This document shows, piece after piece, positions 22,404-58,374 of a stretch of DNA of 64,000 nt; position 1 is the first letter of the stretch; every line of letters starts with the position of its first letter. Under the pieces are notes generated by a model, which worked only from the letters and a program-made list of their open reading frames with translations, was not told the DNA's origin and searched no databases. The DNA lies in contig JACPBB010000001.1 of assembly GCA_016180525.1 (NCBI GenBank), forward strand, positions 11,320 to 75,319, written 5' to 3'. A program made the translations under genes and the position numbers. This DNA is from Parcubacteria group bacterium. GTDB lineage: Bacteria > Patescibacteriota > Minisyncoccia > Phycocordibacterales > UBA2135.

Positions 22404-22485
22404 AGGCGTTAGGCGTTAGGCGTTAGGCGTTAGGCAATCTCAATATTATTCCTAGTGCCTAATGCCTAGCTGCCAGTGCCTAAAC
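22404..22485 (-). repeat. Heptamer hairpin element (TAGGCAC)n-loop-(GCCTAAC)n, corA to cysS
   Basis: Fills the gap from the corA stop to the cysS ATG (..GCCT-ATG). Confidence 0.9.
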
Positions 22486-23400
22486 TTAAAACCATTTCTT
22501 ATGTTTAAAATATAAAAAGAAAACTCCGGCTAAAACAATCATTGCGCCAACGATAAGCCAAAACCCGTTTTCCTCCTCAACAAGCGGCAAATATTCTGTA
22601 TTCATACTAAACAAGGAAGAAAAAAGCGTTAGAGGCAACATAATAAACGCCATAATCGTCAAAACCTTCATAATGTCGTTCGTTTTTGTTGTAAGCAACG
22701 AGTCGTTTGTTGCTTTCAGCTCTCCAAGGATGTCTTTGTCCGCTTCAAACAGAGATGATACTTTATAATATTCTCCCGTAATTGCATGTAAATAATAGTT
22801 AAATTCTTTTCCAAAAAACCCTTCTCCCTCTCGTTCCAATGATTCCAGCACTTGTTTGTGCTGACTTGTTGCTTTTTTAAAATGAAGAAGTTTTCTGTTC
22901 ATTCTTGAAATATGCGGGACCATTTTATGCTCCTTTCCGTTAAAAATATTATTTTCAATTTTATCCAATTCGCTTTGTACATATTCAAGTTCACCCATTA
23001 AATTTTCATATAATTCTTTCATGAGAAAAAAGAAAAGGTACCCCGCATGAGCGCCAACGTTACATTTTTTAAGTACTGCGTTGACACTAAAGAGCCGATT
23101 TGATTTTTCAAGCGAATCAATACTGCTATAGTGCACGGTAACAAAAAAACTTTTACCGATAATAAAGTCTATTTCCTGCTCTATTTCATCGCCGTGGGAA
23201 TGAGAAATGGTTGGGAAATGAAGGATTAAATAAACCAAATTTTTATACACATCCACCTTGGGACGCGCAGAAGGAGAGAGAAGCTCGTCGGCAACAAGAG
23301 GATGAATCGCGTACTCCTCAACAAGCGAACGTACTTCTTCGTGCGTAGGAGACTCCATGTCAATCCATACGAGATCTCCGCATTTTTCTTTGGTAACCAT
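22486..23400 (-). CDS. corA: CorA-family divalent cation transporter
   Basis: WIDMESP, IHPL, RPKVD, TNDIMKVLTI, SMN variant of GMN, two C-terminal TMs. Confidence 0.9.
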   Translation of the reverse strand: MVTKEKCGDLVWIDMESPTHEEVRSLVEEYAIHPLVADELLSPSARPKVDVYKNLVYLILHFPTISHSHGDEIEQEIDFIIGKSFFVTVHYSSIDSLEKSNRLFSVNAVLKKCNVGAHAGYLFFFLMKELYENLMGELEYVQSELDKIENNIFNGKEHKMVPHISRMNRKLLHFKKATSQHKQVLESLEREGEGFFGKEFNYYLHAITGEYYKVSSLFEADKDILGELKATNDSLLTTKTNDIMKVLTIMAFIMLPLTLFSSLFSMNTEYLPLVEEENGFWLIVGAMIVLAGVFFLYFKHKKWF

Positions 23401-23499
23401 ATACATAGTATAGGGTATAACGTATAAAGTATAAAGTATATTTTACCCACATAAATTAAAAAATTTGACCACATAAGTATATGTGCGATAATGGACTAA

Positions 23500-24738
23500 A
23501 TGCATAATAATAATTGGAAATTCTTTTTTCTGCTTATGCTCCTTGTTTTTTCTGGGGCAACTTTTGTATTGGGTATATTCGTAGGATATGAAAATAGGCC
23601 CGAAATCTTAAAAGTTATCTCGCTTGCGAATAAAGAGGCCGCGGTAGTGAGTACTGAATCAACTCTTGTAGACTTTTCTCCTTTTTGGAAATCGTGGAAT
23701 ATTATTGATGAAAAGTTTGTGGGCGTTGCAACAACGACAGGAGAACAAGAGCGTGTCTGGGGAGCAATTAAGGGACTTATAGAGTCGCTTGAAGACCCGT
23801 ATTCGGTCTTTTTCCCTCCAGCAGATGCGGAAACTTTTGCCGAAAACATAGCTGGTAATTTTGGCGGTGTGGGAATGGAAATCGGAATGCGTAACAACAT
23901 ATTAACCGTTATAGCTCCTATTAAAAACACTCCCGCGGAAAAAGCGGGAATAAAAGCGGGGGACAGAATCATTTTTATAGATGAAACGCCAACCTCAGAT
24001 TTAAATATTGAGGAGGCAGTTCGCCTTATCCGAGGCCCCGTCGGAACGTCGGTGGAAATTTCCATAGAGCGTGACAATGTTCAGGATCTCATTGAAATAT
24101 CAGTAGAGCGGGCGGTAATTTCAATTCCAACAATTGATACCGAGGAGCGTACGGATGGAATCTTTGTAATCAAATTATATAATTTTTCAGGAACATCACC
24201 TCAATTATTTAGAGAGGCGCTCCGGGAATTTGTTCTTTCAGGCAAAGATAAACTCCTTATTGACGTAAGAGGAAACGTCGGGGGATTCCTTGAGGCGGCA
24301 GTTGATATTACAAGCTGGTTCTTGCCCCCGGGAAAAATTATCGTAACGGAGGATTTTGGCGGAAAAACAGAGAATACCGTGTATAGAAGCAGGGGGTACG
24401 ATATTTTTAATGAAAACTTAAAATTAGTTATTCTAGTAGACAAAGGTTCTGCTTCGGCAACCGAGATTTTTGCAGGAGCACTTTCTGAACATGGTATTGC
24501 GACACTCGTCGGTGAAAAAACATTTGGGAAAGGGTCTGTCCAGGAATTAATCAATATAACAAGCGATACATCGCTTAAAATAACCGTTGCTCACTGGCTT
24601 ACTCCCAAAGGTAATTCTATTTCTAAAAATGGTATCGTGCCTGATGTGGAAATCCTTATAACACAAAAGGACATTGACTCAAAAAAAGACCCCCAGCTTG
24701 AAAAGGCAGTAGAAATATTAAATAATATAAGGCGCTAG
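23500..24738 (+). CDS. S41 C-terminal processing protease with PDZ domain
   Basis: DPYS, GGVGMEI, RGPVGT, DVRGNVGG, SASATEI, TFGKGSVQ. Confidence 0.93.
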   Translation: MHNNNWKFFFLLMLLVFSGATFVLGIFVGYENRPEILKVISLANKEAAVVSTESTLVDFSPFWKSWNIIDEKFVGVATTTGEQERVWGAIKGLIESLEDPYSVFFPPADAETFAENIAGNFGGVGMEIGMRNNILTVIAPIKNTPAEKAGIKAGDRIIFIDETPTSDLNIEEAVRLIRGPVGTSVEISIERDNVQDLIEISVERAVISIPTIDTEERTDGIFVIKLYNFSGTSPQLFREALREFVLSGKDKLLIDVRGNVGGFLEAAVDITSWFLPPGKIIVTEDFGGKTENTVYRSRGYDIFNENLKLVILVDKGSASATEIFAGALSEHGIATLVGEKTFGKGSVQELINITSDTSLKITVAHWLTPKGNSISKNGIVPDVEILITQKDIDSKKDPQLEKAVEILNNIRR

Positions 24739-24811
24739 CCTTTAGGCACTAGGCTCTAGGAAAAATTAAAAAACCTAACGCCTAAAGTCTGACGCCTAAA
24801 GCCTAAAACCT
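24736..24811 (+). repeat. Heptamer hairpin element, S41 protease gene to rplI (flipped to the + strand along with the genes)
   Basis: TAGGCAC TAGGCTC TAGG-loop-CCTAAC GCCTAAA..GCCTAAA ACCT-ATG. Confidence 0.9.
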
Positions 24812-25255
24812 ATGAAAGTTATCTTATTACAAGATGTCCCTAAGGTGGGAAAAAAATATGAAGTGAAGGAGGTAAAAAACGGCCTTGCCCGTAATTTTCT
24901 TATTCCTAAAAAACTCGTGGAAATAGCAACCGCCGGAACTCTGAAAAAACTAGAAATTTTTAAAGAAAAAAATAAACAGGAGGAAGAAGAAAAAAATAAA
25001 GCACTACGTGACACACTCTCTGCATTAAGCAATAAAACAATTACCATAACCGTACGCGCGGGAGATATGGGGAGCCTTTTTGCTAAAATTACAGCAAAAG
25101 ATATAGCGAACGCAATTAAAAAAGAATATAACGTTAACCTTCCGGAAGAATTAATTATCTTGGAGGAGCCAATTAAAAAAATAGGGGAGTACGATATTGT
25201 GGCGGAAGTAGGGGAGAAAAAAGAAAAATTAAAAGTTGTTATAAAGGCGATATAA
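24812..25255 (+). CDS. rplI: 50S ribosomal protein L9
   Basis: MKVILLQDV..GLARNFLIPKK. Confidence 0.97.
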   Translation: MKVILLQDVPKVGKKYEVKEVKNGLARNFLIPKKLVEIATAGTLKKLEIFKEKNKQEEEEKNKALRDTLSALSNKTITITVRAGDMGSLFAKITAKDIANAIKKEYNVNLPEELIILEEPIKKIGEYDIVAEVGEKKEKLKVVIKAI

Positions 25256-25271
25256 AAAAGAAGCGTTACAA

Positions 25272-25298
25272 TAAAAACTTCCCGCACGGGAAGTTTTT
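25272..25298. terminator. Bidirectional terminator between rplI and rpmA
   Basis: aaaaacttcccg-ca-cgggaagttttt. Confidence 0.75.
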
Positions 25299-25575
25299 AT
25301 TGTAATACAACGTCAATTATTTTTTTCCGAATACTATCTCCGTTAAATTTAATTTTTTTCCTGCTTCTGAATTTTACCACTCCTTCTTTGAGCGCAAAGA
25401 GTGTATGATCTTTTCCCATAGAAACATTTTTCCCTGGAAGTACGCGGGTGCCACGCTGGCGTACAAGAACAAAGCCTGCTTTCGCGGACTGACCATCTTG
25501 GATTTTTATACCGAGATATTTAGGATTTGAATCTCGAAGATTTTTTGCTGAACCTCCTGCTTTTTTATGTGCCAT
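25297..25575 (-). CDS. rpmA: 50S ribosomal protein L27
   Basis: [25 protein letters not shown]. Confidence 0.98.
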
Positions 25576-25587
25576 ATGTTAGAAGAT

Positions 25588-25654
25588 TAGGCTTTAGGCA
25601 CTAAGCTCTAGGAAAATAATTCCTAAAAGCCCAACCCAACGCCCACCACGCCTA
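25588..25654. repeat. Degenerate heptamer hairpin element in a divergent spacer
   Basis: TAGGCTT TAGGCAC TAAGCTC TAGG-loop-CCTAAAA GCCCAAC..GCCTA. Confidence 0.75.
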
Positions 25655-25690
25655 CTTGATACCTTATACTCTATACTTATACTGTAATAT

Positions 25691-26068: not shown

Positions 26069-26070
26069 TT

Positions 26071-33233: not shown

Positions 33234-33253
33234 GAATGTATTATAACACAAAC

Positions 33254-33331
33254 GAGGCTTTAGGTGCTAGGCATTAGGCTTTAGGGTTTTGTTTATTGCC
33301 CTAGCGCCTAGTGCCTAACGCTTAGAGCCTA
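33254..33331 (-). repeat. Heptamer hairpin element starting at the TAG stop of the M23 gene
   Basis: TAGGCTC TAAGCGT TAGGCAC TAGGCGC TAGG-loop-CCTAAA GCCTAAT GCCTAGC ACCTAAA GCCT. Confidence 0.85.
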
Positions 33332-36042: not shown

Positions 36043-37162
36043 GTTTAAGTGCAATCCGAATTGCCTCTCGAGCGATTTTTAAAGCCGCGTCTTTTCTAAA
36101 AAACCCCTGTGCTTGTTTTTTCATTTCCTCCTGAAGGGCGCTGTTTTCCATAATCCGATTTATTTCCGAAAGTAACAAATGGGGAGTTAAATTTTTTTCT
36201 TCCATGACAATCGCCGCCCCAGAGCGAGCATAATTAAAAGCATTCTTCCGCTGATGGTCTCCATTCGATTTTGTTATTGGAACAATGATAGACGGAAGCC
36301 CCCATGAAGCAATTTCAAAAATAGTTGAGCCGGCACGTGATATAACGAGAGAAGCAACCCCAGCGGACATCCGAAGAGCAAGGGTGTGTAAATATCCAAA
36401 TGGTTTGTAGCGCCCAGTTTCGAGCCCCCCTTCTTTTAGAATCGCGAATGACATTTGCTCAGCGTTTTTTATATGAGCAACTCCTGTTTGATGAATTAGT
36501 TGATATTTTCCTATAAGCTGTGGGAGAGCATCCAGTATGACATTATTTATAATTTCAGCGCCCTGTGAACCGCCGAGAACAAGTATAACGGGAATATGTT
36601 CTTCAAGTTTGAGATATTCATATGCCCCTTCTTTAATTGGATTAGCAATATCTCTCCGTACAGGCTGCCCCACAACTGCAGTTTTTTCCTTTGGAAAGAA
36701 AGATGCCGCGCTATCCCACGAAACAGCAATCCGCTCTGCGAATTTACCGGCCCATATATTGCTCCTTCCTGGAATAGCGTCTGACTCATGGATGATAATT
36801 GGAATCCGAAAGATACGCGCCGCAAAAACGACGGGAACGCTCGCATATCCGCCCTTGCTGATTACGACGTCAGGATACAGATTGAATAATTTAAAAAGCG
36901 CCTGAATTGTACCAAGACAAAGTATAAACACGTCTATAATATTGAGCACGGAAAGATAACGTCTTAATTTACCGGAAAAAACGTGTTTAAAAGTGATGTT
37001 ATTTTCAAACAATGCTTTTTTATCAAACGGAGAAACCGACATATAAAAAATTTCCGGGTGCAAGAGTTTTTCCGTTTCAGCAATCTTATGTAACTCTTCC
37101 GCAATGGCGATAAGAGGGTAGAAATGTCCGGCAGTGCCTCCGCCGGTTAAAACAATTTTCAT
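36032..37162 (-). CDS. murG: UDP-GlcNAc:lipid I GlcNAc transferase
   Basis: GGGTAGH, KGGYAS, HESD, GGSQGA, HQRKNA. Confidence 0.96.
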   Translation of the reverse strand: MKIVLTGGGTAGHFYPLIAIAEELHKIAETEKLLHPEIFYMSVSPFDKKALFENNITFKHVFSGKLRRYLSVLNIIDVFILCLGTIQALFKLFNLYPDVVISKGGYASVPVVFAARIFRIPIIIHESDAIPGRSNIWAGKFAERIAVSWDSAASFFPKEKTAVVGQPVRRDIANPIKEGAYEYLKLEEHIPVILVLGGSQGAEIINNVILDALPQLIGKYQLIHQTGVAHIKNAEQMSFAILKEGGLETGRYKPFGYLHTLALRMSAGVASLVISRAGSTIFEIASWGLPSIIVPITKSNGDHQRKNAFNYARSGAAIVMEEKNLTPHLLLSEINRIMENSALQEEMKKQAQGFFRKDAALKIAREAIRIALKHEK

Positions 37163-37233
37163 AGGCTTTAGGCTTTAGGCTTTAGGGATTAGGGATTACA
37201 TATTTTTCCTAACGCCTAGCGCCTAGTGCCTTA
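37163..37233 (-). repeat. Heptamer hairpin element, ftsW to murG
   Basis: TAA GGCAC TAGGCGC TAGGCGT TAGG-loop-CCCTAAA GCCTAAA GCCTAAA GCCT-ATG. Confidence 0.9.
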
Positions 37234-38325
37234 ATTTTTACAATATCGAGATATATTCAAAATAATTCCCGAGCCAATAAACGTGAGAAGTAATGCTGTT
37301 CCTCCATGACTTATGAACGGAAGCGGTAGACCGGTGAGAGGAAAAATGGCGAGCATTGACCCAATGTTTAAAAACGCTTGGCCTGTTATAAGTATAACAA
37401 TTCCCACAACAGCGAGTCTAGAAAAATAATCAGGAGCTCTGTTCGCAATTTGAAATCCTCGTATCGCAAAAAACACAAATAGCAAAATGATAACGAGGGC
37501 GCCAATAAGACCGAATTCTTCCGCGGCGACTGCAAAAATTGAGTCGGAAATAGGCTCCGGTAAATACGTAAATTTTTGAACTCCATGCCCAAATCCCCTA
37601 CCCCATAATCCTCCGGAGCCAACAGCGATGAGTGCTTGCCCTATCTGCCAGCCAGCCCCCTGCACGTCGCTCCATGGGTTTATAAAAGTCAAAATACGCT
37701 CCGCCACATACGGCCGCGTATAAGCAAGCACGGTAAGTCCGACAATTGCCATAACGACAAGCGCGGCGATGTCCCGGAGACGAGCTCCGCTTGCAAAAAA
37801 TATTCCCACTGCGGCGGCAAGCATGACCGCAAGTGTTCCTGTATCCGGCTGTTTTAATAATATAAAACACACAATTCCCAAAAAAATAAAAAGTGGCAAA
37901 AGTCCGTAGGCAATTGTTTGTACCTTGAGACGAACGCCTGAAAACCACGCGGCAAGATAAAGCACCAATCCTAACTTTAATAACTCCGCTGGCTGAAACG
38001 AAAACGAACCAATCTCTACCCACCGAGACGCTCCTTTTAAGGTAAGCCCAATATCGGGAACAAAAACTAAAAGAGTCAGAATAATAGATGCAAGAAAAAT
38101 ATAGAATGAGTATTTTTTCCAAATTTTATAATTAATTTTTGAAACCAAAAAAAGCAGCGCGAGACCTGGTAAAAGCCCCAAAAAAACCTGATTAAAAATA
38201 ATTGATGACATCTTCGCTCCTTCTTCACGCGCAAGAAGGCCAAACGACGCAGAGAGAAAAATAAGAAATCCCCCTCCGGCAAGAAGCAATACGAGTGACA
38301 GAAACCATAGGTCAATTTTGTTCAT
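37231..38325 (-). CDS. ftsW: SEDS peptidoglycan polymerase FtsW
   Basis: GASRW, FQPAE..K, QPD.GT, LPE..SD.IF, TGLPLPFIS.GG; lies between mraY and murG. Confidence 0.92.
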   Translation of the reverse strand: MNKIDLWFLSLVLLLAGGGFLIFLSASFGLLAREEGAKMSSIIFNQVFLGLLPGLALLFLVSKINYKIWKKYSFYIFLASIILTLLVFVPDIGLTLKGASRWVEIGSFSFQPAELLKLGLVLYLAAWFSGVRLKVQTIAYGLLPLFIFLGIVCFILLKQPDTGTLAVMLAAAVGIFFASGARLRDIAALVVMAIVGLTVLAYTRPYVAERILTFINPWSDVQGAGWQIGQALIAVGSGGLWGRGFGHGVQKFTYLPEPISDSIFAVAAEEFGLIGALVIILLFVFFAIRGFQIANRAPDYFSRLAVVGIVILITGQAFLNIGSMLAIFPLTGLPLPFISHGGTALLLTFIGSGIILNISRYCKN

Positions 38326-38409
38326 AGGCGTTAGGCGTTAGGCGTTAGGCGTTAGGCGTTTTAGGATTTTAATTTTCCTAGAGCCTAGTGTCCTAGTGCC
38401 TAGAGCCTA
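38326..38409 (-). repeat. Heptamer hairpin element, mraY to ftsW
   Basis: Begins with the TAG stop and ends (GCCTAAC)4 GCCT-ATG. Confidence 0.9.
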
Positions 38410-39459
38410 AATTAAAGCGATCACCATCCCTAAAATCGCGAGCACTCCGCTTAAAATCCAAAAGCGCATGGTAACCTTATACGCGGGCCATCCCAAAGCT
38501 TCAAAATGATGATGAATGGGCGCGATAAGAAATACTTTTCTACCAAATATTTTTTTTCCTATGAGTTGTACAATAACAGATGCCGGAGCGGCAAAGAGAA
38601 AAAAGGCAATGAGCGGCAAAACAATAACAGCCTTTGTAAGAAAGGCGACAACGGCAAGGGTCGTGGTAAGCCCTAAAATCCCCGTCTCTGACATATAGAA
38701 TCGCGCGGGAGGAATATTAAACCACAAAAACGCAAAGGTGCCTCCGGCAATGACACTGCAAAACGCCGCAAGGTCAATTTGGTTTTGAAAAAACGCGATT
38801 CCGGCATACGCGGCAAACGCAGTCGCAAGAATGCCCCCCGCAAGCCCGTCAAGCCCGTCAATAACCCCACCCGAAAAAAGAGCAAGCATGACAAGCATAA
38901 AGAAAGGTATAAAAAAAATCCCTAGAGAAATTTCCCCGAGAAACGGTATCGCGATAGTACTCACGCCCAATTTAACAAAAAACCACCATGCACCGATTGC
39001 CCCAATCCCTAAAACAGTAGCGATACGAAAAGACAATGGAAGCCCCCCGGCAACATATCCGCCTCGCCCAAACACAACTAAAAAATCATCAAATAATCCG
39101 ACACACGATGCCGCAAGAAGCGTAAAAAGGGGTAGCCAAGTTTGACTTCTGCTTAAAAAATTAAATTTTTCAGCTGCTTCCCCGGAAAATAGCTTTGATA
39201 GTAAAAAAAAGAATAAAACAGTAATAAGCGTTGAAAGCCAAATAATAATACCTCCCATACGCGGAGTGTTCGTTTCTTTTTCTTTATGAAGCGCGTTGAA
39301 AAGCGGCGTCTCCCCTCCTCCGAGCGCTTCATTCCGCGCTTTTTTTTTCCAAAGTTTATATTTATAGAGATAGTGCGTAACAAACGGAGTTATTGAAATG
39401 CCAATAGCAAACGCGACTGTCGCAGGAATAAATACTTTTAAGACGTTGATGATTTCCAT
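38407..39459 (-). CDS. mraY: Phospho-N-acetylmuramoyl-pentapeptide transferase
   Basis: TPRMGG, GLFDD, DGLDGL, FN.PPA, APIHHHFE. Confidence 0.95.
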   Translation of the reverse strand: MEIINVLKVFIPATVAFAIGISITPFVTHYLYKYKLWKKKARNEALGGGETPLFNALHKEKETNTPRMGGIIIWLSTLITVLFFFLLSKLFSGEAAEKFNFLSRSQTWLPLFTLLAASCVGLFDDFLVVFGRGGYVAGGLPLSFRIATVLGIGAIGAWWFFVKLGVSTIAIPFLGEISLGIFFIPFFMLVMLALFSGGVIDGLDGLAGGILATAFAAYAGIAFFQNQIDLAAFCSVIAGGTFAFLWFNIPPARFYMSETGILGLTTTLAVVAFLTKAVIVLPLIAFFLFAAPASVIVQLIGKKIFGRKVFLIAPIHHHFEALGWPAYKVTMRFWILSGVLAILGMVIALI

Positions 39460-39463
39460 GATA

Positions 39464-39526
39464 CTAGGCTTTAGGCTTTAGGCTTTAGGAATTTCGTTTT
39501 TTCTAATGCCTAGCGCCTAGTGCCTC
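39464..39526 (-). repeat. Heptamer hairpin element in the mraY 5' leader
   Basis: Follows TATAAT (39533-39538) and ends GCCTAGTATC-ATG. Confidence 0.85.
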
Positions 39527-39604
39527 AATAATATTATAACACTAAATAGACCTCGCTCAGAAGTTCGCCTCGTTAGAAATTCAGCCATTATTGTTTTTTA
39601 AAAT

Positions 39605-39717: not shown

Positions 39718-41418
39718 TTAGGCGTGGGCGTGGACCGTTGCGGCCTTCTTCGCCTTGGCCTTGCCCTTCTTGGCCTTCGGCTTGGGCGCGTCGGCGACCG
39801 CTTCGGTGGGAACTTCCTCGGGCTTCGAGGGAGTCTCCGGCGTGGCGGTCTTCTCGGCGGAGCGCCTGGCGATCTTGCCGAGCTCCCGAACGATCTTCTT
39901 GAACTCGTTCGGGTCCGTGAGAAGCGCCTTGTGCTTCTCCGGATACTCGACGGCCGTGATATCGCCGCCAGCTTCCGCGCGCGAGGCGAGGAAGTGGACC
40001 TGGAAGTGCTTCTTGCCCTTGCTGTCCCTCCAGGGGAACTTGATGAAGGAGTAGGACATGCCGGCCTTCGCGGGTTCGCCGAAGAAGTCCCCGAAGGAAA
40101 CGTTGGCCTTGCTGTTGTAGTTGTCCTTCTCCGTCTTGTACGCTTCATGTGCGTCTTCCTGCTTCTGGGCGCACTTGAACGCCCAGGAAAGCCGGCGGTA
40201 CAAGTCCTTCAAATTGCCGAACTCGTGCTGGTTGGGCACGAAGTAAGGCAACTCGAGATAGAACTTGTCCAGATCCTGGAGGGACTCCAGGGGAATCGCC
40301 CACGGGGCGATGCGGTGGCCGCGGTCGGAAACCGGCGAAGCGAGCGACGTCAAGGCCTCGGAGAGGGTCTGATAGACGACCTTTTCATAGCCTTCGCCGT
40401 CGTTCGGATACTCCATCGCCTTGCCGTCGACGACCTGAGGACCTTCGCGGGTAGGCGGTACAAGCGAGACGAAGATGCCCGTGTAGGGAACCTTGTTCCC
40501 GTCCTTGTCCTTCGACATGCGCGTGTCTTCAAACGCGCAGAGAAGGGCGCCGCCTTCGTGGGTCACGAATCGGACTTTCTTGTCCTGTGTGCCCCCCTTT
40601 TGCCGCGGGAACCAAACGTAGCAGGTTGCCGCTGGCACTTGCCGTGGCTTGCCGTCCTTGTCTCGACGTATGACGGTGGTCGTGAGATCTTTCTTGGTCA
40701 CCGAGCGGAACTCGGAGACCCACTTGACCGTCGCCTGGTTGCGAAACGCTGCGGACCCATCCTTGGTGTCGGCGCGGGAGACGAAGTATGCCCCGCGCGC
40801 CTTCTCCGAGAGGAGCATGAGAATGTTGAGGTCATAGACCTCGTTCTCGTACTCCTTGGTCGCGCCGATCCACGTGCCGTTGACCAAGGCGCCGATCGGG
40901 AGCTTCTCCTTGGAGGCGAAGATGATGTTTCGCTCCAAGCCGAACTGATTCATCCGTTCCGCCACGCTCGCAAGAGCACCATCCGGAACGATTTGGCCGA
41001 GCATCGCGGCGAGAAAATGAACTCCCGCCGTATGCATGAACCGGTCCTTCTGATCCCCAACGAAATTCTTGGCGTCGGGGAAAACGTCGACGTCGGCGTC
41101 ACAGAAGCGCTCGGCGGTCTTGACCATCTCCTCGGCGGAATGTCCCGCCTGAAGAAGCGCTGCCGCCTTCGTGGCGTACAGCGCGACGAATTCGGGAACC
41201 TGCGTCATGAGGGTGTTGAAAGCGCCCTCGTTTGCCGCTTGTTCCTCGGGCGTGGACTGGATCGTTGGCAGCGTGAAGCCGCCTGTCTTGGTGGTCTGCA
41301 TGGCTTTCGCCTCCTTGTGGTTGCCGTTTGGTTTTGACTCGTCAGGACGCCGAGTCACCTTGATGCCCTTTGCCTCCAGCGCTTGCTGGGTTTGGGGGTT
41401 GATGATCTCACCAGTCAT
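39718..41418 (-). CDS. GC-rich orphan protein (566 aa) with Lys/Ala-rich C-terminal tail
   Basis: Strong GC3 codon bias on this strand, SD AGAAAGGA, consensus promoter and terminator. Confidence 0.85.
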   Translation of the reverse strand: MTGEIINPQTQQALEAKGIKVTRRPDESKPNGNHKEAKAMQTTKTGGFTLPTIQSTPEEQAANEGAFNTLMTQVPEFVALYATKAAALLQAGHSAEEMVKTAERFCDADVDVFPDAKNFVGDQKDRFMHTAGVHFLAAMLGQIVPDGALASVAERMNQFGLERNIIFASKEKLPIGALVNGTWIGATKEYENEVYDLNILMLLSEKARGAYFVSRADTKDGSAAFRNQATVKWVSEFRSVTKKDLTTTVIRRDKDGKPRQVPAATCYVWFPRQKGGTQDKKVRFVTHEGGALLCAFEDTRMSKDKDGNKVPYTGIFVSLVPPTREGPQVVDGKAMEYPNDGEGYEKVVYQTLSEALTSLASPVSDRGHRIAPWAIPLESLQDLDKFYLELPYFVPNQHEFGNLKDLYRRLSWAFKCAQKQEDAHEAYKTEKDNYNSKANVSFGDFFGEPAKAGMSYSFIKFPWRDSKGKKHFQVHFLASRAEAGGDITAVEYPEKHKALLTDPNEFKKIVRELGKIARRSAEKTATPETPSKPEEVPTEAVADAPKPKAKKGKAKAKKAATVHAHA

Positions 41419-43866: not shown

Positions 43867-44799
43867 TTAAAGTTGCAATGTTTTAAGTGCCGCGAATATA
43901 AGCTGTTCGGCGTCTGAAAAACGTTCGTCAGGAGTTGACCCGAGCACGACAACCGCAATCGGCCGCATAGGCCCTGCATCAAAAATGAGCGCGAAATTTC
44001 CTCCGGCAAGATCAGTTGTCCCCGTCTTTGAGGCGACAATTCCCGGAAATGTTTCAACAAACTTATTCGTATTTTCAAGATTGTGTACTGCCCCATCAAG
44101 AGAGTGCGTCGTAAGCAAAAGATGTGTCGTTGCTTCCATTAAATGCGGATGCTCTCTCTCTACGTATCCAAGAAGACGCGCGAAGTCCTGCGCCGAGCCG
44201 TATGCGCCGCTTACTCCGAGATTTATATCAAACCCCGTTTCATTGATAAAAAATGTTTGACTGAGTCCTATTTGTTTTGCTTTTTGGTTTAACGCTTCTG
44301 TAAGTGGACTCTGTCCAGACGCAAATGAATCTCTGCCGCCAGAAGTGATTACAGACGCAAGCGCATGAGCTCCATCATTTGACGAAGTCAAGAGTGTTGC
44401 GTCAATTAAATCTTTTAAGCGCCAGCGCTCTCCGACGAGAAATCCATGGTCCCCTTCTTCTAAAATTGCTTCCTTGCTTACTATGGCAATACCGTCTTCT
44501 CCCTGTTCCTCAAGAGCGATGAGCGCGGTCATAATTTTAGTAAGGGAAGCGAGAGGAAGTTGTGCTTCTCCGTTTAATGAATATAAAGGCTTCTTTTTTT
44601 CTATATCAAAAACAAATGCCGCTTTTGCTTTAAGGTGTATGAGTGAAAACGGGTCAGGGACTAAAAGTTGTTTTATGTGCTCTTCTTCCGGAGACGTAAG
44701 AATATTCGTTTGTATTAACACCATGCGCCCAAATAAAAAAAGAAAAAAGACGAGCGCAAGCCCGGAAACAATAATGTGGTCTTTGTTCTTAAAATTCAT
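43867..44799 (-). CDS. D-alanyl-D-alanine carboxypeptidase (peptidase S11)
   Basis: ASLTK (SxxK), SSN, KTG. Confidence 0.9.
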   Translation of the reverse strand: MNFKNKDHIIVSGLALVFFLFLFGRMVLIQTNILTSPEEEHIKQLLVPDPFSLIHLKAKAAFVFDIEKKKPLYSLNGEAQLPLASLTKIMTALIALEEQGEDGIAIVSKEAILEEGDHGFLVGERWRLKDLIDATLLTSSNDGAHALASVITSGGRDSFASGQSPLTEALNQKAKQIGLSQTFFINETGFDINLGVSGAYGSAQDFARLLGYVEREHPHLMEATTHLLLTTHSLDGAVHNLENTNKFVETFPGIVASKTGTTDLAGGNFALIFDAGPMRPIAVVVLGSTPDERFSDAEQLIFAALKTLQL

Positions 44800-44865
44800 A
44801 AAAATTTAGGGTTTAGCGGATAGCGTTTAGACGAAACTGAACCCTAAACGCTGTACGCTAAACGC
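44800..44865 (-). repeat. Variant heptamer hairpin (TAGCGTT)n/(GCTAAAC)n, scpB to carboxypeptidase gene
   Basis: Same architecture with a different heptamer. Confidence 0.8.
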
Positions 44866-45411
44866 TTATTCTTCTTGATTTTGAAATGTTTCTTCAAATA
44901 CTTTTACTTCGTTCTGAACTGTTTCATATTCAGGCAGCTGTGAAATACGGGTTATGCCCAAATATTGAAGTAATTCAAACGCAGGTCGGTATAACAAAAT
45001 TCGCTTGTCTTTTTCATCTACGATCCTTTCAATTAAACCACGAACAAGCAAGTTTCTCAAAATAAATTGCGAGTTTACGCCACGAATAAAATCAATATTA
45101 CTTTTATTGATCGGGCCACGATAGAGAATGAGCGTAAGTGTTTCAAGAGCCGCGCGAGAAAGCTCCGCGGTAAGCTCTGCTTTTGTTATCTCGGCAAGAA
45201 GCTCTCCGTGTTCAGGCGCGCTCCCCAGCATAACGGTATCTTCTTTAAATAGCAACCTCACACCGCGCCCTTCCAAATTTTTTTCAAGCAACAAAAGAGC
45301 CTCTTTGACTTCTTCTTCCGCAACTTTTAAATGCTTAGCTAAAAAAGCTATACGCACAGGTTCTGCTTTTAAGAAAAGAATCGCTTCAATTTTTTGCTCT
45401 AGGTTAGACAT
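44866..45411 (-). CDS. scpB: SMC-Scp complex subunit ScpB
   Basis: IEAILF, LSRAALETL..I.Y..P, IRGVNS. Confidence 0.95.
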   Translation of the reverse strand: MSNLEQKIEAILFLKAEPVRIAFLAKHLKVAEEEVKEALLLLEKNLEGRGVRLLFKEDTVMLGSAPEHGELLAEITKAELTAELSRAALETLTLILYRGPINKSNIDFIRGVNSQFILRNLLVRGLIERIVDEKDKRILLYRPAFELLQYLGITRISQLPEYETVQNEVKVFEETFQNQEE

Positions 45412-46571: not shown

Positions 46572-47903
46572 TTATTCCGACAAAAGTGTGTCTATGCGAT
46601 TTATCTCCCGCGGAAAGAGGGTTGCTTCTTTGACATTTTCCAAATTCAAAAGCCGGGCTGTAATACGCTCAAGCCCTGTTGAACAGCCACCGTGCGGAGG
46701 CATGCCGTATTTAAACGCCTGAAGGTAAAAGCTGAACGTATCAGGGTCAAGCCCCTTTTCGCGGATTCTTCGCACCAGTTCATCAAAATCATGCACCCGC
46801 TGGCTGCCGCTGTTTATTTCAAGTCCGCGAAATAGTAAATCAAAACTCTTTGAATACGCCTTATCTTTTTCATCAATGTATGTATAAAAAGGCCGCTTTG
46901 CTGTTGGAAAATGCGTTATAAACACAAAATCAGAGCCGTGTTTTTCTTTTGCCCACCTGCATATTTCTCGTTCTTCTTCTGGGTTGATGTCAGGTTCATT
47001 ATTACACTGCATTCCTCGCTCGTTTTCCAATATCTTCTGCGCTTCCCGCAACGTAAGGCGGGGAAATCGCTCCGGCATAAGCGGGGCGTCTGTTTTAAAG
47101 CGAGAAAAAATGGAGGCATGTTTTTCAGAAACAGAAGAAACAATGCTGCGGATTGTTTTTTCAAGAACATTCATCACGTCTTCGTGGTCTTTAATAAAAC
47201 CCATTTCAAAATCCATCTGCACCACTTCGCTTAAATGTCGGGTCGTTGCATGTTTCTCTGCTCTGAATATTTTTGCTGTCGTAAACACCCGTTCAAAAAC
47301 GCCCACCATCATTTGTTTGTAAAGCTGTGGGCTTGTCGCAAGAAATGCCTTTTTGTCATTAAAATAATCTACCTGAAACGCGGATGCTCCTCCCTCGGCA
47401 TCGCCTCCAACAATAACAGGGTTTTGATACTCAATAAACCCCTCTTCGGACATTGCGTTACGAAAAGCAGCAATTACGGAGGCCTGAAGAGTAAAGATGT
47501 CACGGGCCCTCTCTGTGCGAAGCGTAAGCGGCAAATGGTTTAAATATGTGTCTAAATTAAGTTCTGCGTTTTTTTCAAAAGGCAGTTCGTGAGCCTGGCT
47601 TAATACCACAACCTCTTTTGCCTCTAACTCAATATCCCCAGTATCAATATCGGGATTTATCATATTGTCAGGACGCTTTTTGACCGCGCCTCCTATCCGC
47701 ACTACCCATTCAGGGCGGCATTCTTTAAGCGCCTCATACGCCTTCTCTTGTTTGGGAGAAACAACGACCTGCACAATACCCGTCTTGTCCCGCAGATCAA
47801 TAAAAATGAGTTTTCCGTGGTCACGGCGAACATCAACCCATCCAGCAACAGTTGCCTCCTTCCCAACATAGTTTTTTAATTCATTTATATAAATTCGTTC
47901 CAT
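46572..47903 (-). CDS. aspS: Short, probably non-discriminating aspartate--tRNA ligase
   Basis: RDHGKLIFIDLRD, SPQLYKQ, FRAE, GMPPHGG, FPR. Confidence 0.93.
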   Translation of the reverse strand: MERIYINELKNYVGKEATVAGWVDVRRDHGKLIFIDLRDKTGIVQVVVSPKQEKAYEALKECRPEWVVRIGGAVKKRPDNMINPDIDTGDIELEAKEVVVLSQAHELPFEKNAELNLDTYLNHLPLTLRTERARDIFTLQASVIAAFRNAMSEEGFIEYQNPVIVGGDAEGGASAFQVDYFNDKKAFLATSPQLYKQMMVGVFERVFTTAKIFRAEKHATTRHLSEVVQMDFEMGFIKDHEDVMNVLEKTIRSIVSSVSEKHASIFSRFKTDAPLMPERFPRLTLREAQKILENERGMQCNNEPDINPEEEREICRWAKEKHGSDFVFITHFPTAKRPFYTYIDEKDKAYSKSFDLLFRGLEINSGSQRVHDFDELVRRIREKGLDPDTFSFYLQAFKYGMPPHGGCSTGLERITARLLNLENVKEATLFPREINRIDTLLSE

Positions 47904-47975
47904 AGCTATTGTATTTATAGTATCTCGTATTTGGTATCTGGTATTTAGTATGTTTAAAATTATACGAGATACTGT

Positions 47976-48947
47976 TTAAAAAGTTATTCCAACTTTTTCC
48001 CTCACCTCTTTCATCTTTGCGCGAGCTCTTTTTTGAGCGCGCGCTCTTCCATTTTCAATAACATCAAAAATATTTTTGTTATCACGAGCTATTTTATTTC
48101 TTCTCTCGCGCAACGGACCAATAAATGATGTTATATTTTTAATAAGAATTTCTTTTGACTCTTTATACCCTATGGTGCCATTTTTATATCGCTCGGCAAG
48201 TTCCGCCAATTTCGTTTCGCTGAAAAGCCGATGAAGCGCAAATACCGTATCGGCCTCTACATCCTTTTTTTCTTTTTCTCCTTTTGAGTCGGTCACGATG
48301 CTCATAACGAGTTTTTTAATTTCTTCGTCCGTGGCAAACAAAGGAATCGTATTTTTGTAACTCTTGCTCATTTTTTGCCCGTCAATGCCGGGAACAGTGG
48401 CAACCTCGCGCATGATGTGCGCTTTTGGCAATTTAAACGTCTCTCCGTATCTATTATTAAATTTTTCCGCAATATCTCTTGCAATTTCAACATGTTGCTT
48501 TTGGTCCTGCCCCACCGGAACAACATCCGCGTCCATTATCAAAATATCCGCTGCCATAAGCGCAGGATAATCAAAAAGCCCCACGGTCGCCTCCAATCCT
48601 TTTTCCACCTTTTCTTTATACGCAACGGCACGAGAGAGATATGGAACAGTGATGAGCGTATTAAAAATCCACGCAAGTTCTGTTACTTCCGGAATGTCCG
48701 ACTGAGGAAATAAATTCTCAGGCGTAAGGCCGATTGCTAAATAATCAAGAATCACATTTCTAGTATTCTCGGCAAGAATATTTGCATCTGACACTGAAGT
48801 AAGCGCATGATAATTCGCAACAAAAATAAAACTCTCAAATTCATCTTGAAGTTCAACAAAACGCTTCATCGCGCCAAAATAATTGCCGATATGAAGCGTC
48901 CCCGACGGCTGTATGCCCGAAACTAATATTTTTTTACCTCCAGTCAT
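47976..48947 (-). CDS. trpS: Tryptophan--tRNA ligase
   Basis: SGIQPSG.LHIGN, YP.LMAADIL, VPVG.DQ.QH, KMSKS. Confidence 0.97.
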   Translation of the reverse strand: MTGGKKILVSGIQPSGTLHIGNYFGAMKRFVELQDEFESFIFVANYHALTSVSDANILAENTRNVILDYLAIGLTPENLFPQSDIPEVTELAWIFNTLITVPYLSRAVAYKEKVEKGLEATVGLFDYPALMAADILIMDADVVPVGQDQKQHVEIARDIAEKFNNRYGETFKLPKAHIMREVATVPGIDGQKMSKSYKNTIPLFATDEEIKKLVMSIVTDSKGEKEKKDVEADTVFALHRLFSETKLAELAERYKNGTIGYKESKEILIKNITSFIGPLRERRNKIARDNKNIFDVIENGRARAQKRARAKMKEVREKVGITF

Positions 48948-53965: not shown

Positions 53966-54029
53966 ACTATAATCAAGTATTTTACATATGTCAAGAAAAG
54001 CTTGACAAAAAAATAATTTTTAGTATACT
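53966..54029. promoter_or_regulatory. Back-to-back sigma70 promoters (grpE operon on minus, small ORF on plus)
   Basis: Minus: TTGACA-17-TATAGT (53966-53994). Plus: TTGACA-16-TATACT (54002-54029). Confidence 0.75.
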
Positions 54030-54069
54030 TTACGAAGTAAATTTGTCCCTTTTGTTGAAGGAGAAAATT

Positions 54070-54219: not shown

Positions 54220-54257
54220 CAGAATTAAGTAGCCGTTTTTATTACTGAAAGAGTTAT

Positions 54258-54289
54258 AAAATGGCGAGCATTGGATGCTCGCCATTTTT
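54258..54289. terminator. Bidirectional terminator
   Basis: aaaatggcgagcat-tgg-atgctcgccattttt. Confidence 0.8.
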
Positions 54290-54292
54290 CTA

Positions 54293-54721: not shown

Positions 54722-54731
54722 AGATAATGTT

Positions 54732-55103: not shown

Positions 55104-55106
55104 ATT

Positions 55107-55457
55107 TTATACAAATTCAATGATTGCCATTTTGCTGGCATCTCCTAAGCGACGAGGCAGTTTGGTAATTCTTGTGTACCCTCCAGCTCGTTCTTTATAG
55201 CGAGGCGCAATATCAGCGATAAGCTTCTTGGCGCCCACCCTGTTACCAAGACGTGCCACCAAAAGTCTGTGTGTAGAAAGTGAACTATTTTTTCCTCTTG
55301 TCACCAATTTTTCAACAAAGGGCCGTAATTCCTTCGCCTTTGCTTCAGTTGTTTTAATTTTTCCTCTAGTGACAAGAGAAAGTGCTAAACCACGAAGAAG
55401 CGCCCTCCTTTGGTCTCTTTCTCTTCCAAATTTTCTGTTTTTGTTATGATGCCTCAT
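55107..55457 (-). CDS. rplQ: 50S ribosomal protein L17
   Basis: MRH..RKFGR, IKTT.AKAKELR, GGYTRI. Confidence 0.98.
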   Translation of the reverse strand: MRHHNKNRKFGRERDQRRALLRGLALSLVTRGKIKTTEAKAKELRPFVEKLVTRGKNSSLSTHRLLVARLGNRVGAKKLIADIAPRYKERAGGYTRITKLPRRLGDASKMAIIEFV

Positions 55458-55541
55458 GTTACTAGGCTTTAGGCTTTAGGCTTTAGGCTTTAGGAATCGT
55501 TGTTTTTTCCTAGTGCCTAGCGCCTTAACGCCTAGTGCCTA
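55458..55541 (-). repeat. Heptamer hairpin element, rpoA to rplQ
   Basis: The TAG stop is the first unit; ends CCTAAA (GCCTAAA)3 GCCTAGTAAC-ATG. Confidence 0.9.
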
Positions 55542-56504: not shown

Positions 56505-56636
56505 AATTTTTTGATTCGTTTAATTAAATTTTAAAATTCAAGATAAAAATTTAAAATAATTAAACGAGATATTTATTAATAATAATTTTATTAAACTTTT
56601 AAAAAATAATACAAAATACTTAATACGTTATAATGT

Positions 56637-57242
56637 TTATCTGCTATAAAATCCTATAACTGCGGGTATGCTAAACACATCTCCAGAAATCATTTCTAAT
56701 TTTGGAATCCCGATAACATTTCCTTCCATTTTTTTAGGATCAAGCGAGAGCCATGCGGGAGTAATATGAGTATTGAGAGATTCCGAAATATTCATAAACA
56801 GCTTACTTTCTCTGCTTCCGGGTCGTATTTCTATACGATCCTTACCTCCGACGGTAAAAGATGGAATATTCACCCTTCTACCGTTCACCATAATATGTCC
56901 ATGGGACACCATCTGACGAGCAAGAGGACGTGTTTTTGCAAAACCAAGTCTAAATACTACATTGTCGAGTCTTAATTCAAGATTTTTATATAAATGTTCA
57001 GCTGGATTTACCCCTTTTTTAAGTGTTGCTTTTTTCACATATGTCGCAAACTGCCGTTCGTTTAAATTATACGTCAAACGCATTTTTTGTTTTTCAAGAA
57101 GTTGAATTCCGAATTCGGTAATCGGCGATGGATGTTTCCGTGCGACTGTCTTTTTCGTCAAAATAAATTTTGGGTTTTGTGTTTTAGAAAAAATTCGTGC
57201 CCCTAGACGACGTGCTGTTTTGTATTGTTTTAGTTTTGCCAT
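56637..57242 (-). CDS. rpsD: 30S ribosomal protein S4 (no Zn-finger cysteines)
   Basis: QL.EKQK.R..Y, LE.RLDNVVFRLG, ARQ.VSHGH. Start placed at MAKLK. Confidence 0.97.
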   Translation of the reverse strand: MAKLKQYKTARRLGARIFSKTQNPKFILTKKTVARKHPSPITEFGIQLLEKQKMRLTYNLNERQFATYVKKATLKKGVNPAEHLYKNLELRLDNVVFRLGFAKTRPLARQMVSHGHIMVNGRRVNIPSFTVGGKDRIEIRPGSRESKLFMNISESLNTHITPAWLSLDPKKMEGNVIGIPKLEMISGDVFSIPAVIGFYSR

Positions 57243-57260
57243 AAAAATAATGAATGAAAT

Positions 57261-57383
57261 GAATATATTTTTTGAGCACCCCCTTCTTTTCGCGCAAGCG
57301 CGCAAAAGGAGGGGGTAAAGGTTTGGCATCCACAGTTTTTGTTCCGACATGTCGGAACAAAAACTGTGGGCCAATTCACTTTA
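57261..57383. repeat. ~125-bp dispersed two-hairpin element, copy 1 (rpsK to rpsD)
   Basis: Near-identical to 60453-60579. Confidence 0.9.
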
Positions 57384-57815
57384 CACTCTTCTTGGTTTCT
57401 TTGGCTTAGGACCATTATGTGGAATAGGCGTTTCATCCCGAATCACTTTTAGTTCCACCCCGCGGGAAGCAAAAGAGCGTAGAGATGATTCACGTCCTGG
57501 GCCAACTCCAGATAATACTACAACAACCTCTTTTATTCCTATAGTTTTCGCTTTTTCCCCGATAAGTTCCCCTACTTTCGCGGCGGCAAACGGGGTTCCT
57601 TTTTTTGTTCCTTTAAATCCTAAGGAACCGCTTGACGACCAACAAAGCGTGTTACCTTTTTTATCGGAAAGTAAAAGGTGCGTATTGTTGTATGTTGACT
57701 GGATATGAAGTATTCCATCGGAAACTTTTTTCTTGGGAGATTTACCCAAAGACCTGGTGCGTAATTCCGCATCAAATCCGCCACCGCTTTTTTGTACTGT
57801 TCGTTTTTTTCCCAT
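57381..57815 (-). CDS. rpsK: 30S ribosomal protein S11
   Basis: STYNNT, GFKG.KK.TPFAA, G.GPGRE, TPIPHNG..P.K.RRV. Confidence 0.98.
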   Translation of the reverse strand: MGKKRTVQKSGGGFDAELRTRSLGKSPKKKVSDGILHIQSTYNNTHLLLSDKKGNTLCWSSSGSLGFKGTKKGTPFAAAKVGELIGEKAKTIGIKEVVVVLSGVGPGRESSLRSFASRGVELKVIRDETPIPHNGPKPKKPRRV

Positions 57816-57902
57816 GATACTAGGCTTTAGGCTTTAGGCTTTAGGCTTTAGGAATATTATTATTTCTTCCTAGTGCCTAGTGCCTAATGTCTAGTCCCTG
57901 AA
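57816..57902 (-). repeat. Heptamer hairpin element, rpsM to rpsK
   Basis: CAGGGAC TAGACAT TAGGCAC TAGGCAC TAGG-loop-(GCCTAAA)n GCCTAGTATC-ATG. Confidence 0.9.
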
Positions 57903-58283
57903 TTATGTCTTTTCCAACTTCCGCTTACCGGATCCCATTGTTTTTCTCACATTGCCACGAACCGTTCTTGAATTCGACTTTGTCTGCTGGCCACGAACCG
58001 GCAAATTTTTAGCATGACGAATTCCGCGATATGCCTTTATGTCTTTAAGACGTTTAATATTCCCCGCAACTTCTCTTTTCAACTCCCCTTCAATTACATA
58101 TTCTTCTACTAATTTTCGAATCTTGTTTTCATCCTCTGCTTTTAGGTCAGTTGATTTTAGAGTTTTATCAACGTGCGCTTTCTCTAAAATAGTTAGAGCT
58201 CGTGACCGACCAATGCCATAAACAGCCATGAGTGCAAACTCAAGGCGTTTCTGTTCTGGAATTGTAATACCTGCGATACGCAT
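57903..58283 (-). CDS. rpsM: 30S ribosomal protein S13
   Basis: MRIAG, YGIG, IKRL..I..YRG.RH...LPVRGQ. Confidence 0.98.
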   Translation of the reverse strand: MRIAGITIPEQKRLEFALMAVYGIGRSRALTILEKAHVDKTLKSTDLKAEDENKIRKLVEEYVIEGELKREVAGNIKRLKDIKAYRGIRHAKNLPVRGQQTKSNSRTVRGNVRKTMGSGKRKLEKT

Positions 58284-58374
58284 GATACTAGGCTTTAGGC
58301 TTTAGGCTTTAGGCTTTAGGAATATCATTGCTTTCTCCCTAGCGCCTAGTGCCTAATGTCTAGTGCCTGAATTA
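58284..58374 (-). repeat. Heptamer hairpin element, rpmJ to rpsM
   Basis: Arms are nearly identical to 57816-57902 while the loop differs. Confidence 0.9.

Follow-up and report, generated by a model that had tools for sequence, protein, structure and literature searches.

What are the hairpins, 60–90 nt long and built from 7-nt repeats, that fill gene junctions in a 64,000-nt stretch of a Parcubacteria group bacterium genome (contig JACPBB010000001.1, positions 11,320 to 75,319, here G000:C3:11320-75319; in the following called the window)? A first-pass annotation of this sequence listed ten copies and considered a translational-coupling or RNA-processing device, a repeated protein-binding site, or a non-autonomous element that targets gene junctions. 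Along the mRNA, the element comprises the upstream stop codon, a left arm of (TAGGCNN)3-5, an A-rich loop of 12–20 nt, a right arm of (GCCTAAA or GCCTAAC)3-5, CCTA, GTATC-like bases or none, and the ATG of the next gene. We found that the copies form a family by descent, gene-less, locked in orientation and filling the gaps from stop to start, which has been gained or lost among close relatives. The last of the three proposals is thus supported by the arms, loop and 3′ end common to the copies, by plain spacers in a genome of the same genus (G001) and by a gene-bearing version in a genome of the same family but of another, sister genus (G007). Our best explanation, in which we place about even confidence, is a dispersed family of gene-less (“solo”) palindromic cassettes with complementary heptamer arms, likely derived from cassettes carrying a gene of the Pfam family PF05635, the 23S rRNA intervening-sequence protein.

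The analysed genome (G000) comprises five contigs with 41% G+C and is rated 97% complete; the DNA runs listed for the organism are five groundwater metagenomes, four of them from a single study. Open reading frames (ORFs) were called greedily as the longest frames, not with a gene finder, and their starts are approximate unless fixed by the element. Counting copies genome-wide, as the first-pass annotation had suggested, we used TAGG-N3-TAGG and CCTA-N3-CCTA as seeds, which clustered into 54 groups; the 31 with both arms were retained, while single-seed clusters (five of them within ORFs) and arrays handled apart were left out. These 31 two-arm copies in 945,633 bp are all intergenic, in a genome of which only 9.35% lies outside the ORF calls. 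Same-strand genes flank 27 of them, convergent genes two (C1:86537, C1:108179) and divergent genes one (window position 25588), and one copy has an ORF on one side (C1:18953). Among copies flanked by ORFs on both sides, the same-strand share is therefore 27/30 (90%), against a background of 730 same-strand, 192 divergent and 192 convergent ORF junctions. The periodicity is specific: (TAG N4)x3-TAG matched 86 times at period 7 and 0–1 times at each of the periods 3–6 and 8–12, and GCCTAANGCCTAANGCCTA (GCCTAAN x3) matched 31 times, against none for the reversed control. This pattern is far from chance.

Copies have in common the left-arm order CAC-TAGGCGT-TAGGCGC-TAGGCAC, the loop AAAAAACGATATT and the 3′ end CCTA-GTATC-ATG, and this irregular left-arm order, the loop and the GTATC terminus are alike at about 20 different junctions. 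Because arms, loop and 3′ end are shared in this way, we take the copies to descend from one another. As a separate observation made by eye, the loop sequence GATATT, considered as part of an internal promoter, lies 12 or 19 nt from a TAGGCA-like -35 sequence.

Within the window, Tandem Repeats Finder detected period-7 arrays at each of the ten places of the first-pass list, for instance at 22403-22435 with 22451-22482, 38325-38360 with 38377-38409, and 57821-57852 with 57869-57899. The arrays hold 3.4–6.1 copies of the unit. As had been described, nine copies show the full order of arms and loop on the mRNA strand and run into an ATG, the copy at 25588 is degenerate and sits in the divergent spacer between rpmA (-) and an ORF (+), and the element turns with gene direction, the copy at 24736 lying on the + strand between the + genes for an S41 peptidase and rplI (Table 1). 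The adjoining genes, named by Pfam, are ordinary housekeeping genes; the 38-codon L36-like ORF was named by eye, with no Pfam run. No Rfam family was found in the whole window at gathering scores. Contigs of two of the metagenome runs (X1, X2) span the copies at 24736, 25588, 33254 and 37163 without differences and end at the copies 22404, 38326 and 39464; indels were reported at no copy, which carries little weight because contigs omit rare variants.

Folded as sense RNA, the nine copies reach -22.8 to -36.5 kcal/mol, with z-scores of -3.1 to -6.1 against dinucleotide shuffles, and their stems consist, as anticipated, of 4–6-bp helices split by 2x2 or 1x1 loops. The antisense RNAs of three copies form nearly unbroken helices of -37 to -41.4 kcal/mol. 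Spacers between the conserved bases of the units are AC, GT, GC or AT in the left arm and uniformly AA or AC in the right arm, so that A.A and C.A mismatches in the mRNA correspond to G.U pairs in the antisense strand. Sense RNA is less stable than antisense in 25 of the 27 same-strand junctions; in the two exceptions (C1:273311, C1:250121) the gap is 0.3 and 0.6 kcal/mol. Counting CCTAAA versus TTTAGG, a cruder measure, agrees in 24 of the 27, with one tie and two contrary cases; these three junctions hold GCCTAAC-type copies, whose perfect array is start-proximal too. The regular GCCTAAA or GCCTAAC array always lies on the side of the start codon.

An independent orientation pass over all same-strand spacers of 45–260 nt found the sense strand weaker in 16 and stronger in 4 heptamer spacers, versus 131 and 171 for non-heptamer control spacers (Mann-Whitney p 3e-4). 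Three copies amid oppositely oriented neighbours (C3:36048, which is the window copy 24736, C1:250121 and C1:111251) all follow their own genes. This suggests that orientation tracks transcription rather than replicon position. The description “transcription-oriented” in the first-pass annotation thus holds for this genome by folding energy, but does not carry over as an energy asymmetry to another genome of the order, G103, in which the sense strand is the weaker in nine and the stronger in eight of 17 spacers with TAG/CTA heptads; a class-wide rule that sense folds weaker than antisense finds no support in this split. A strict lag-7 detector reported only two heptamer spacers in G103, because its units vary. 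The asymmetry may therefore go back to a single master copy and not to selection; even so, copies are inserted or retained non-randomly with respect to gene direction. We also rejected a polarity of single arrays, with TAG arrays after stops and CTA arrays before starts, since most “single” arrays have a partner of unlike unit and the arms come in reverse order at locus C3:282957.

The contacts with the flanking codons are exact to the nucleotide at most of the 27 same-strand copies. The start codon, an ATG in 25 of 27, begins exactly 5 nt past the last CCTA in 18, overlaps it (GCCT-ATG) in four and abuts it in two, while the remaining three gaps are 2, 4 and 57 nt; the last unit lies at most 5 nt from the start codon in 26 of 27. 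In the window, the last unit was rightly described as running into the ATG, as GCCT-ATG at 22404, 24736, 37163 and 38326 and as GCCTAGTA(T/A)C-ATG at 39464, 55458, 57816 and 58284. On the other side, all 27 copies have the upstream stop 0–14 nt ahead of their first xAGGC unit. In nine, the stop is itself a unit’s TAG, with the ORF entering the array by one or two units in at least four of them; one of the nine “upstream ORFs” has 26 codons and is probably no gene. Such use of the TAG had been noticed in several window copies and is seen at 33254, 38326 and 55458, with the second unit’s TAG ending the ORF at 24736, whereas the stop at 37163 reads TAA-GGCAC. TAA or TGA replaces the unit’s TAG in two further copies. 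Altogether, TAG is the stop at 10 of 27 elements, versus 163 of 911 long ORFs genome-wide.

The start codons at these junctions lack a Shine-Dalgarno (SD) motif, as the first-pass annotation stated, but this is no trait of the junctions, being genome- and order-wide. The 16S rRNA gene (G000:C3:326672-328055, outside the window) ends in ...GTGGAACAATTTCT without CCTCC. The same pentamer is missing in 12 of 12 relatives of the order that show the GTCGTAACAAGG landmark (loci L190-L203; two further loci are without the landmark). Upstream of 910 ORFs, GGAGG occurs in 3.8%, G reaches at most 21% at every position from -20 to -1, and no SD signal was seen. By eye, loops and arms had no consistent complementarity to the 16S 3′ tail. 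At most element junctions, ATC immediately precedes the start codon (GTATC-ATG, AAATC-ATG, ACATC-ATG), and it also precedes the start of the PF05635 gene in G001 (ATATC-ATG); genome-wide, T is the commonest base at position -1 (44%) and C stands at 23%.

Table 1 Junction hairpins in the window. Positions are those of the window; energies of copies refer to sense RNA unless stated otherwise.
Feature	Position	Strand	Junction and contacts	Energy (kcal/mol)	z
Copy 1	22401..22488	-	corA-like stop (TAA) to cysS start; right arm (GCCTAAC)4 into GCCT-ATG	-31.6	-4.1
Copy 2	24733..24814	+ (only + strand junction copy in window)	S41 peptidase stop (TAG within array) to rplI start, CCT-ATG	-22.8	-3.1
Copy 3, degenerate	25588..25660	+ (strand only from A/C-rich right arm)	rpmA (-) / 125-aa ORF (+)	+ RNA -16.8; - RNA -32.1	
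Copy 4	33249..33331	-	M23 peptidase stop (TAG of first unit) to 108-aa ORF, TTG start	-36.5	-5.1
Copy 5	37160..37233	-	ftsW stop (TAA-GGCAC) to murG start (GCCT-ATG)	-27.4	-4.9
Copy 6	38323..38409	-	mraY stop (TAG of first unit) to ftsW start; right arm (GCCTAAC)4 into GCCT-ATG	-30.3; antisense -41.4	-5.9
Copy 7	39457..39530	-	directly upstream of mraY start (GCCTAGTATC-ATG); next upstream ORF ~190 nt off	-24.9	-4.4
Copy 8	55455..55541	-	rpoA stop (TAG of first unit) to rplQ start (GCCTAGTAAC-ATG)	-36.3	-6.1
Copy 9	57813..57905	-	rpsM stop (TAA) to rpsK start (GCCTAGTATC-ATG)	-27.7	-4.2
Copy 10	58281..58377	-	stop of 38-codon L36-like ORF to rpsM start	-31.3	-3.7
Like-class hairpin, unit AGCGTTT / AAACGCT	44799..44866	-	fills same-strand junction		
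Like-class hairpin, unit AATTTTN / ATTCAAA	34613..34720	-	gltX / M23 peptidase gene	-29.7 / -26.5	
Like-class hairpin, unit GTATYTN	47918..47975	-	in junction 47903-47976		

The comparisons covered 41 genomes of relatives and 121 genomes of the order. Empty sites, which the first-pass annotation had proposed to look for, were found in G001, whose S11 protein is 90% identical: at two junctions occupied in G000, rpmJ-rpsM and rpsM-rpsK, it has repeat-free spacers of 35 nt. Six further genomes of the family (G002, G004, G005, G006, G009, G010) have spacers of 1–56 nt at mraY-ftsW, ftsW-murG and rpoA-rplQ. G007 has hairpins at these same three junctions, built from other units (TAGCTTN/AAAGCTA at rpoA-rplQ, CAAAATG-type near ftsW), and hairpins of yet other units stand at neighbouring junctions in G008, G004 and G010.

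GCCTAAN x3 occurs in only two of the 41 genomes, G000 and G007. Eight TAGGC/GCCTA loci were found in G007, three of them at junctions orthologous to G000 copies (cysS-corA, C1:205160, C2:10963). Two others match junctions filled in G000 by a hairpin built from a different unit (window 44799-44866, C1:113976-114083); of the remaining loci, one faces a different G000 palindrome and two are unplaced. The left arms of the C1:205160 pair are alike, whereas the right arms read (GCCTAAA)n for G000 and (TCCTAAT)4 for G007, which indicates that each lineage homogenised its arrays independently. More generally, (TAG N4)x4 is present in 66 of the 121 genomes of the order, mostly far above the reversed control, and its units are highly diverse even inside single genomes. 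In a wider scan with one genome per species, GCCTAAN x3 was found at no fewer than 122 loci across many phyla, where by our own arithmetic about 70 matches are expected by chance (17 fixed bases, 596 Gb); among the matches listed, the complete hairpin architecture appeared in several Patescibacteria records and in Chthonomonadaceae.

Two loci of the relatives show further arrangements. The spacers on either side of ftsW in G007 (L143, G007:C2:18587-22675, junctions 1403-1501 and 2592-2704; CAAAATG-type) are reverse complements over about 95 nt, so that the whole gene is bracketed by long inverted repeats. The 255-nt rpoA-rplQ spacer of G008 (L161, G008:C60, 1155-1411) contains nested hairpins, with outer GATACAAAT-type arms and inner AAATCCG/CGGATTT heptamer arms.

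The first-pass annotation had also raised the prospect of a small gene within the loop, and in G007 the same arms do enclose a gene, G007:C31:37030-37347, which belongs to PF05635 (E 4e-36). It is preceded by (TAGGCNN)4-TAGG-AAA-ATG and followed by ...CCCTAAT-GCCTAG-CGCCTAAAGCCTAGAGCCTAA, with its last codons and stop inside the right arm. A second PF05635 gene of G007 lies between TAGCTT/AAGCTA arms, the units of the solo hairpins at rpoA-rplQ and rplQ-rplM in that genome, and the PF05635 gene of G001 has TAGCTT arms. Of 18 PF05635 genes inspected, eight have at least two TAG units upstream and at least two CTA units downstream. Flanks pair beyond the 5th percentile of 267 control ORFs in 8 of 18 (median -27.7 versus -15.4 kcal/mol).

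Across the order, matches to PF05635 above the Pfam cut-off occur in 50 of 121 genomes, compared with one of 14 well-known control genomes, and genomes below 1 Mb have as many as nine copies. Taking a best E of at most 1e-10 as presence in the 120 genomes besides G000, we found five or more (TAG N4)x4 arrays in 36 of 50 genomes with the gene and in 14 of 70 without it (odds ratio 10, Fisher p 2e-8, uncorrected for kinship). Some of these genes may be Avd parts of diversity-generating retroelements, the types being pooled in the counts. Two loops of G000 (C1:175372 and window 58284) read ...ATGATATT-CCTAAAG, and one may conjecture that they are the joined ends of a lost ORF.

If the copies are solo cassettes, their tolerance inside operons could be explained at the RNA level. 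They would be transcribed within operon mRNAs, where the interrupted stem would place the stop of one gene and the start of the next at the foot of a single helix. RNase III might then cleave this stem, as it cleaves those of rRNA intervening sequences, or the terminating ribosome might open it; by either route the insert would be no barrier to the downstream gene. An RNase III gene is present in G000 (C4:30423-30815). Tolerance would be limited to the orientation in which the mRNA has the A.A and C.A mismatches and the ATG follows an A-rich leader. On this account, the elements appear to be passengers, selfish or close to neutral, that may have been co-opted for operon processing. The genes do not depend on them as a device, given that relatives express these operons with spacers of 1–56 nt. 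Their persistence in two genera, in essential operons of a streamlined genome, suggests some benefit or at least harmlessness.

Several observations weigh against an origin from mobile cassettes. Copies at orthologous junctions in two genera fit retention for function equally well. In the oriented copy list, no direct repeat that could be a target-site duplication is visible at the ends, and the whole spacer differs from that of G001. No transposase of the repetitive extragenic palindrome (REP)-associated type (RAYT) or other transposase was found in G000, where Y1 (PF01797) was the one transposase family searched. As RNase III substrates, sense helices of 4–6 bp broken by 2x2 loops are poorer than the 28-bp stem of Coxiella. 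The rule of the weaker sense strand fails in G103, as described above. The association between arrays and PF05635 ignores phylogeny and genome size, and 14 genomes besides G000 have arrays without the gene. A hidden or decayed PF05635 gene was not found in G000, the profile search detecting no gene and tblastn with the proteins of six relatives no remnant (best E 0.79); derivation from a gene-bearing cassette therefore rests on the sister genome.

A bolder version of the solo-cassette explanation, which we think improbable, is that they belong to an undescribed kind of mobile element in ultra-small bacteria, carried along in operon transcripts and rendering itself harmless as RNA, whose gene-less stems now act as bridges from stop to start that hand the ribosome to the ATG 5 nt beyond, in a lineage without anti-SD. 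Were this true, it would constitute a bacterial counterpart of ribosome shunting and would give a function to unexplained heptamer repeats of many phyla.

The rival that survives best, although we consider it unlikely, is a translational-coupling device of the host. The stem would juxtapose stop and start so that translation of the downstream gene has to await that of the upstream one, the ribosome that terminates at the stem base either opening the last one or two masking units or crossing the stem (a “shunt”), and this would stand in for SD-based initiation in a lineage without anti-SD. Such a role agrees with the stop 0–14 nt before the stem in 27/27 and the ATG 5 nt after the last CCTA in 18/27 or overlapping it in 4/27. 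At -23 to -36 kcal/mol, the sense stems would keep positions -5 to -35 masked, and the sense helices are weaker and interrupted by mismatches. The 16S rRNA lacks CCUCC here as in 12/12 relatives, with GGAGG upstream of 3.8% of 910 ORFs. Copies also sit in the essential, tightly packed operons rpsM-rpsK, rpoA-rplQ and mraY-ftsW-murG, and some are kept at orthologous G007 junctions. However, relatives that equally lack an anti-SD run the same junctions free of hairpins with their 1–56-nt spacers, which makes such a device dispensable. Convergent genes flank two copies and divergent genes one, the copy at 39464 has no nearby upstream stop, and elsewhere the same arms carry a selfish-looking gene.

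Somewhat less probable than coupling is a by-product of DNA replication, in which arrays arise by slippage in place and their inverted partners by template switching, and are tolerated where harmless, without mobility or a role in RNA. Perfect arrays on the start side such as (GCCTAAA)4 suggest recent slippage, the right arm of the orthologous G007 copy is homogenised to (TCCTAAT)4, and units vary widely between and within genomes of the order. Heptamer simple repeats with convergent pairs, 70 and 75 of them, are described in passages on Xanthomonas (PMC4692102). Independent slippage would nevertheless not be expected to give the same irregular left-arm order, loop and GTATC terminus at about 20 junctions, nor would replication alone produce a strict tie to gene direction, which three copies keep against the direction of their neighbours. 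It also leaves aside that the same arms enclose a gene in G007.

HutP binds UAG triplets spaced by 4 nt, and arrays of UAG+4-nt units could likewise be sites for a protein that reads single-stranded repeats, each unit binding one subunit of a ring-shaped or multi-domain protein with affinity for RNA or DNA. Candidates are the pentameric PF05635 protein, S1, cold-shock proteins (Csp) and a HutP-like factor. Throughout the order, units keep TAG invariant and vary at their four remaining positions, arrays and PF05635 gene co-occur, and the 3–5 units per array can be set beside the homopentameric S23p/PF05635 protein of Xanthomonas (as cited in a passage of PMC4990558). S1, Csp or CsrA were proposed by MacGregor for TAACTGA repeats (PMC4679880). 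We judge this reading quite improbable: G000 has neither a PF05635 gene nor HutP, yet holds 31 copies, and complementary arms suggest a helix, not single-strand sites. A HutP-like reader was rejected, PF09021 giving no match in G000. Transcription terminators or attenuators between genes, finally, are very improbable in spite of the stable hairpins and the two copies between convergent genes, since the stem is followed by GUAUC-AUG and no U-run, 27 of 31 copies lie inside same-strand runs including conserved operons, and the sense strand folds weaker.

Among known systems, the first-pass annotation had pointed to the short tandemly repeated repetitive (STRR) sequences of heterocystous cyanobacteria, which are likewise dispersed tandem heptanucleotide units. 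STRR units are CCCCAGT and others, and they form direct arrays, not stop-to-start hairpins. This precedent stands as an analogy only, as the units TAGGCNN/GCCTAAN and the host (0.95 Mb; kin 0.4–1.2 Mb) do not fit. With REP sequences, bacterial interspersed mosaic elements (BIME) and miniature inverted-repeat transposable elements (MITEs), the G000 copies share their form as short, dispersed, intergenic, non-autonomous palindromes presumably co-transcribed with operons. They differ in that the arms are internally periodic and the gene-bearing relative encodes a four-helix-bundle protein, not a transposase; a REP/RAYT model was rejected, PF01797 (Y1) having no match in this 97% complete genome.

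Among the closest are the intervening sequences (IVS) of 23S rRNA, known for example from Coxiella, Leptospira and Xanthomonas, whose terminal inverted repeats pair into a stem that encloses a loop or the gene of a small four-helix-bundle protein. The Coxiella IVS is bounded by a stem and carries the S23p ORF, with three or four heptameric direct repeats, variable in number between strains, upstream of it, and RNase III cuts the stem at the first heptameric repeat (passages of Warrier et al. 2016, PMC4990558). Heptameric repeats at the 5′ stem, where that cleavage takes place (PMC4990558), are thus a common feature, and in G007 the PF05635 gene lies inside the very arms seen in G000. Unlike IVS, all 31 copies are placed between protein-coding ORFs rather than in 23S helices 25 or 45; they are gene-less, their arms consist entirely of heptamer units with 2x2 mismatches in the mRNA sense, and RNase III cutting would here be by analogy.

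TAACTGA repeats are patchy across lineages of marine Beggiatoaceae, cyanobacteria and Bacteroidetes and form two to six tandem 7-nt units a few nt upstream of start codons (MacGregor 2015, PMC4679880), comparable to the last unit within 5 nt in 26/27 in G000. They are described there as direct repeats with one indirect case, whereas the G000 unit GCCTAAA/GCCTAAC always comes with a complementary TAGGCNN array after the upstream stop. The heptamers of Xanthomonas (GGGAATC) and Nostoc (GGGGAYT) are also dispersed and mostly intergenic, with 70–75 convergent array pairs able to form stem-loops (passages of Rehm et al. 2015, PMC4692102). Their units differ in being G-rich and quadruplex-forming, the passages report no fixed contact with stops or starts, and only 18% of the Nostoc arrays share the direction of the neighbouring ORF (PMC4692102). 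Our literature search, which left most subscription journals outside its coverage, found no paper on intergenic hairpins or tandem repeats of the candidate phyla radiation (CPR) or on PF05635 cassettes with heptamer arms.

Tandem heptamer repeats of cyanobacteria, Xanthomonas, Beggiatoaceae and Bacteroidetes have been noted for decades without explanation. G000 offers a countable case, with one unit family, about 30 copies, fixed orientation, nucleotide-exact contacts with stop and start, empty sites and a gene-bearing sister version. It ties heptamer repeats to the poorly understood protein family of rRNA IVS, for which RNase III cutting was shown in rRNA. If the cassette origin is true, these long-unexplained bacterial repeats become testable, and the finding bears on operon translation in a large bacterial order without anti-SD.

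The window contains at least three junction hairpins of other units that the first-pass annotation did not list (Table 1). Upstream of the L36-like ORF (58546-58620), a second repeat family was seen, with TACGAAT/ATTCGTA units and a period of 9–10 instead of 7, which makes hairpins at other junctions as well (G000:C1:113976-114083 and the G008 loci L148 and L161).

The 23S rRNA gene of G000 is unlinked from the 16S gene and truncated where the contig ends. Outside the window, at G000:C3:344086-344410 (L214:2531-2696), about 320 nt are inserted into this gene at model positions 1185-1309, an insert with a closing stem (GTGAACTTCATTGAGGAG ... CTCTTCAATGAAGTTCA) and containing tRNA-Gly(tcc) and tRNA-Trp(cca), without TAGGC arms. 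Two other 23S stretches exceed the model by 200–360 nt. Within the window, ORFs of 566 codons (39718-41418, -) and 537 codons (39724-41337, +) overlap almost completely on opposite strands; the minus-strand ORF had no Pfam match, and the region contains 21- and 9-nt tandem repeats (39744-39784).

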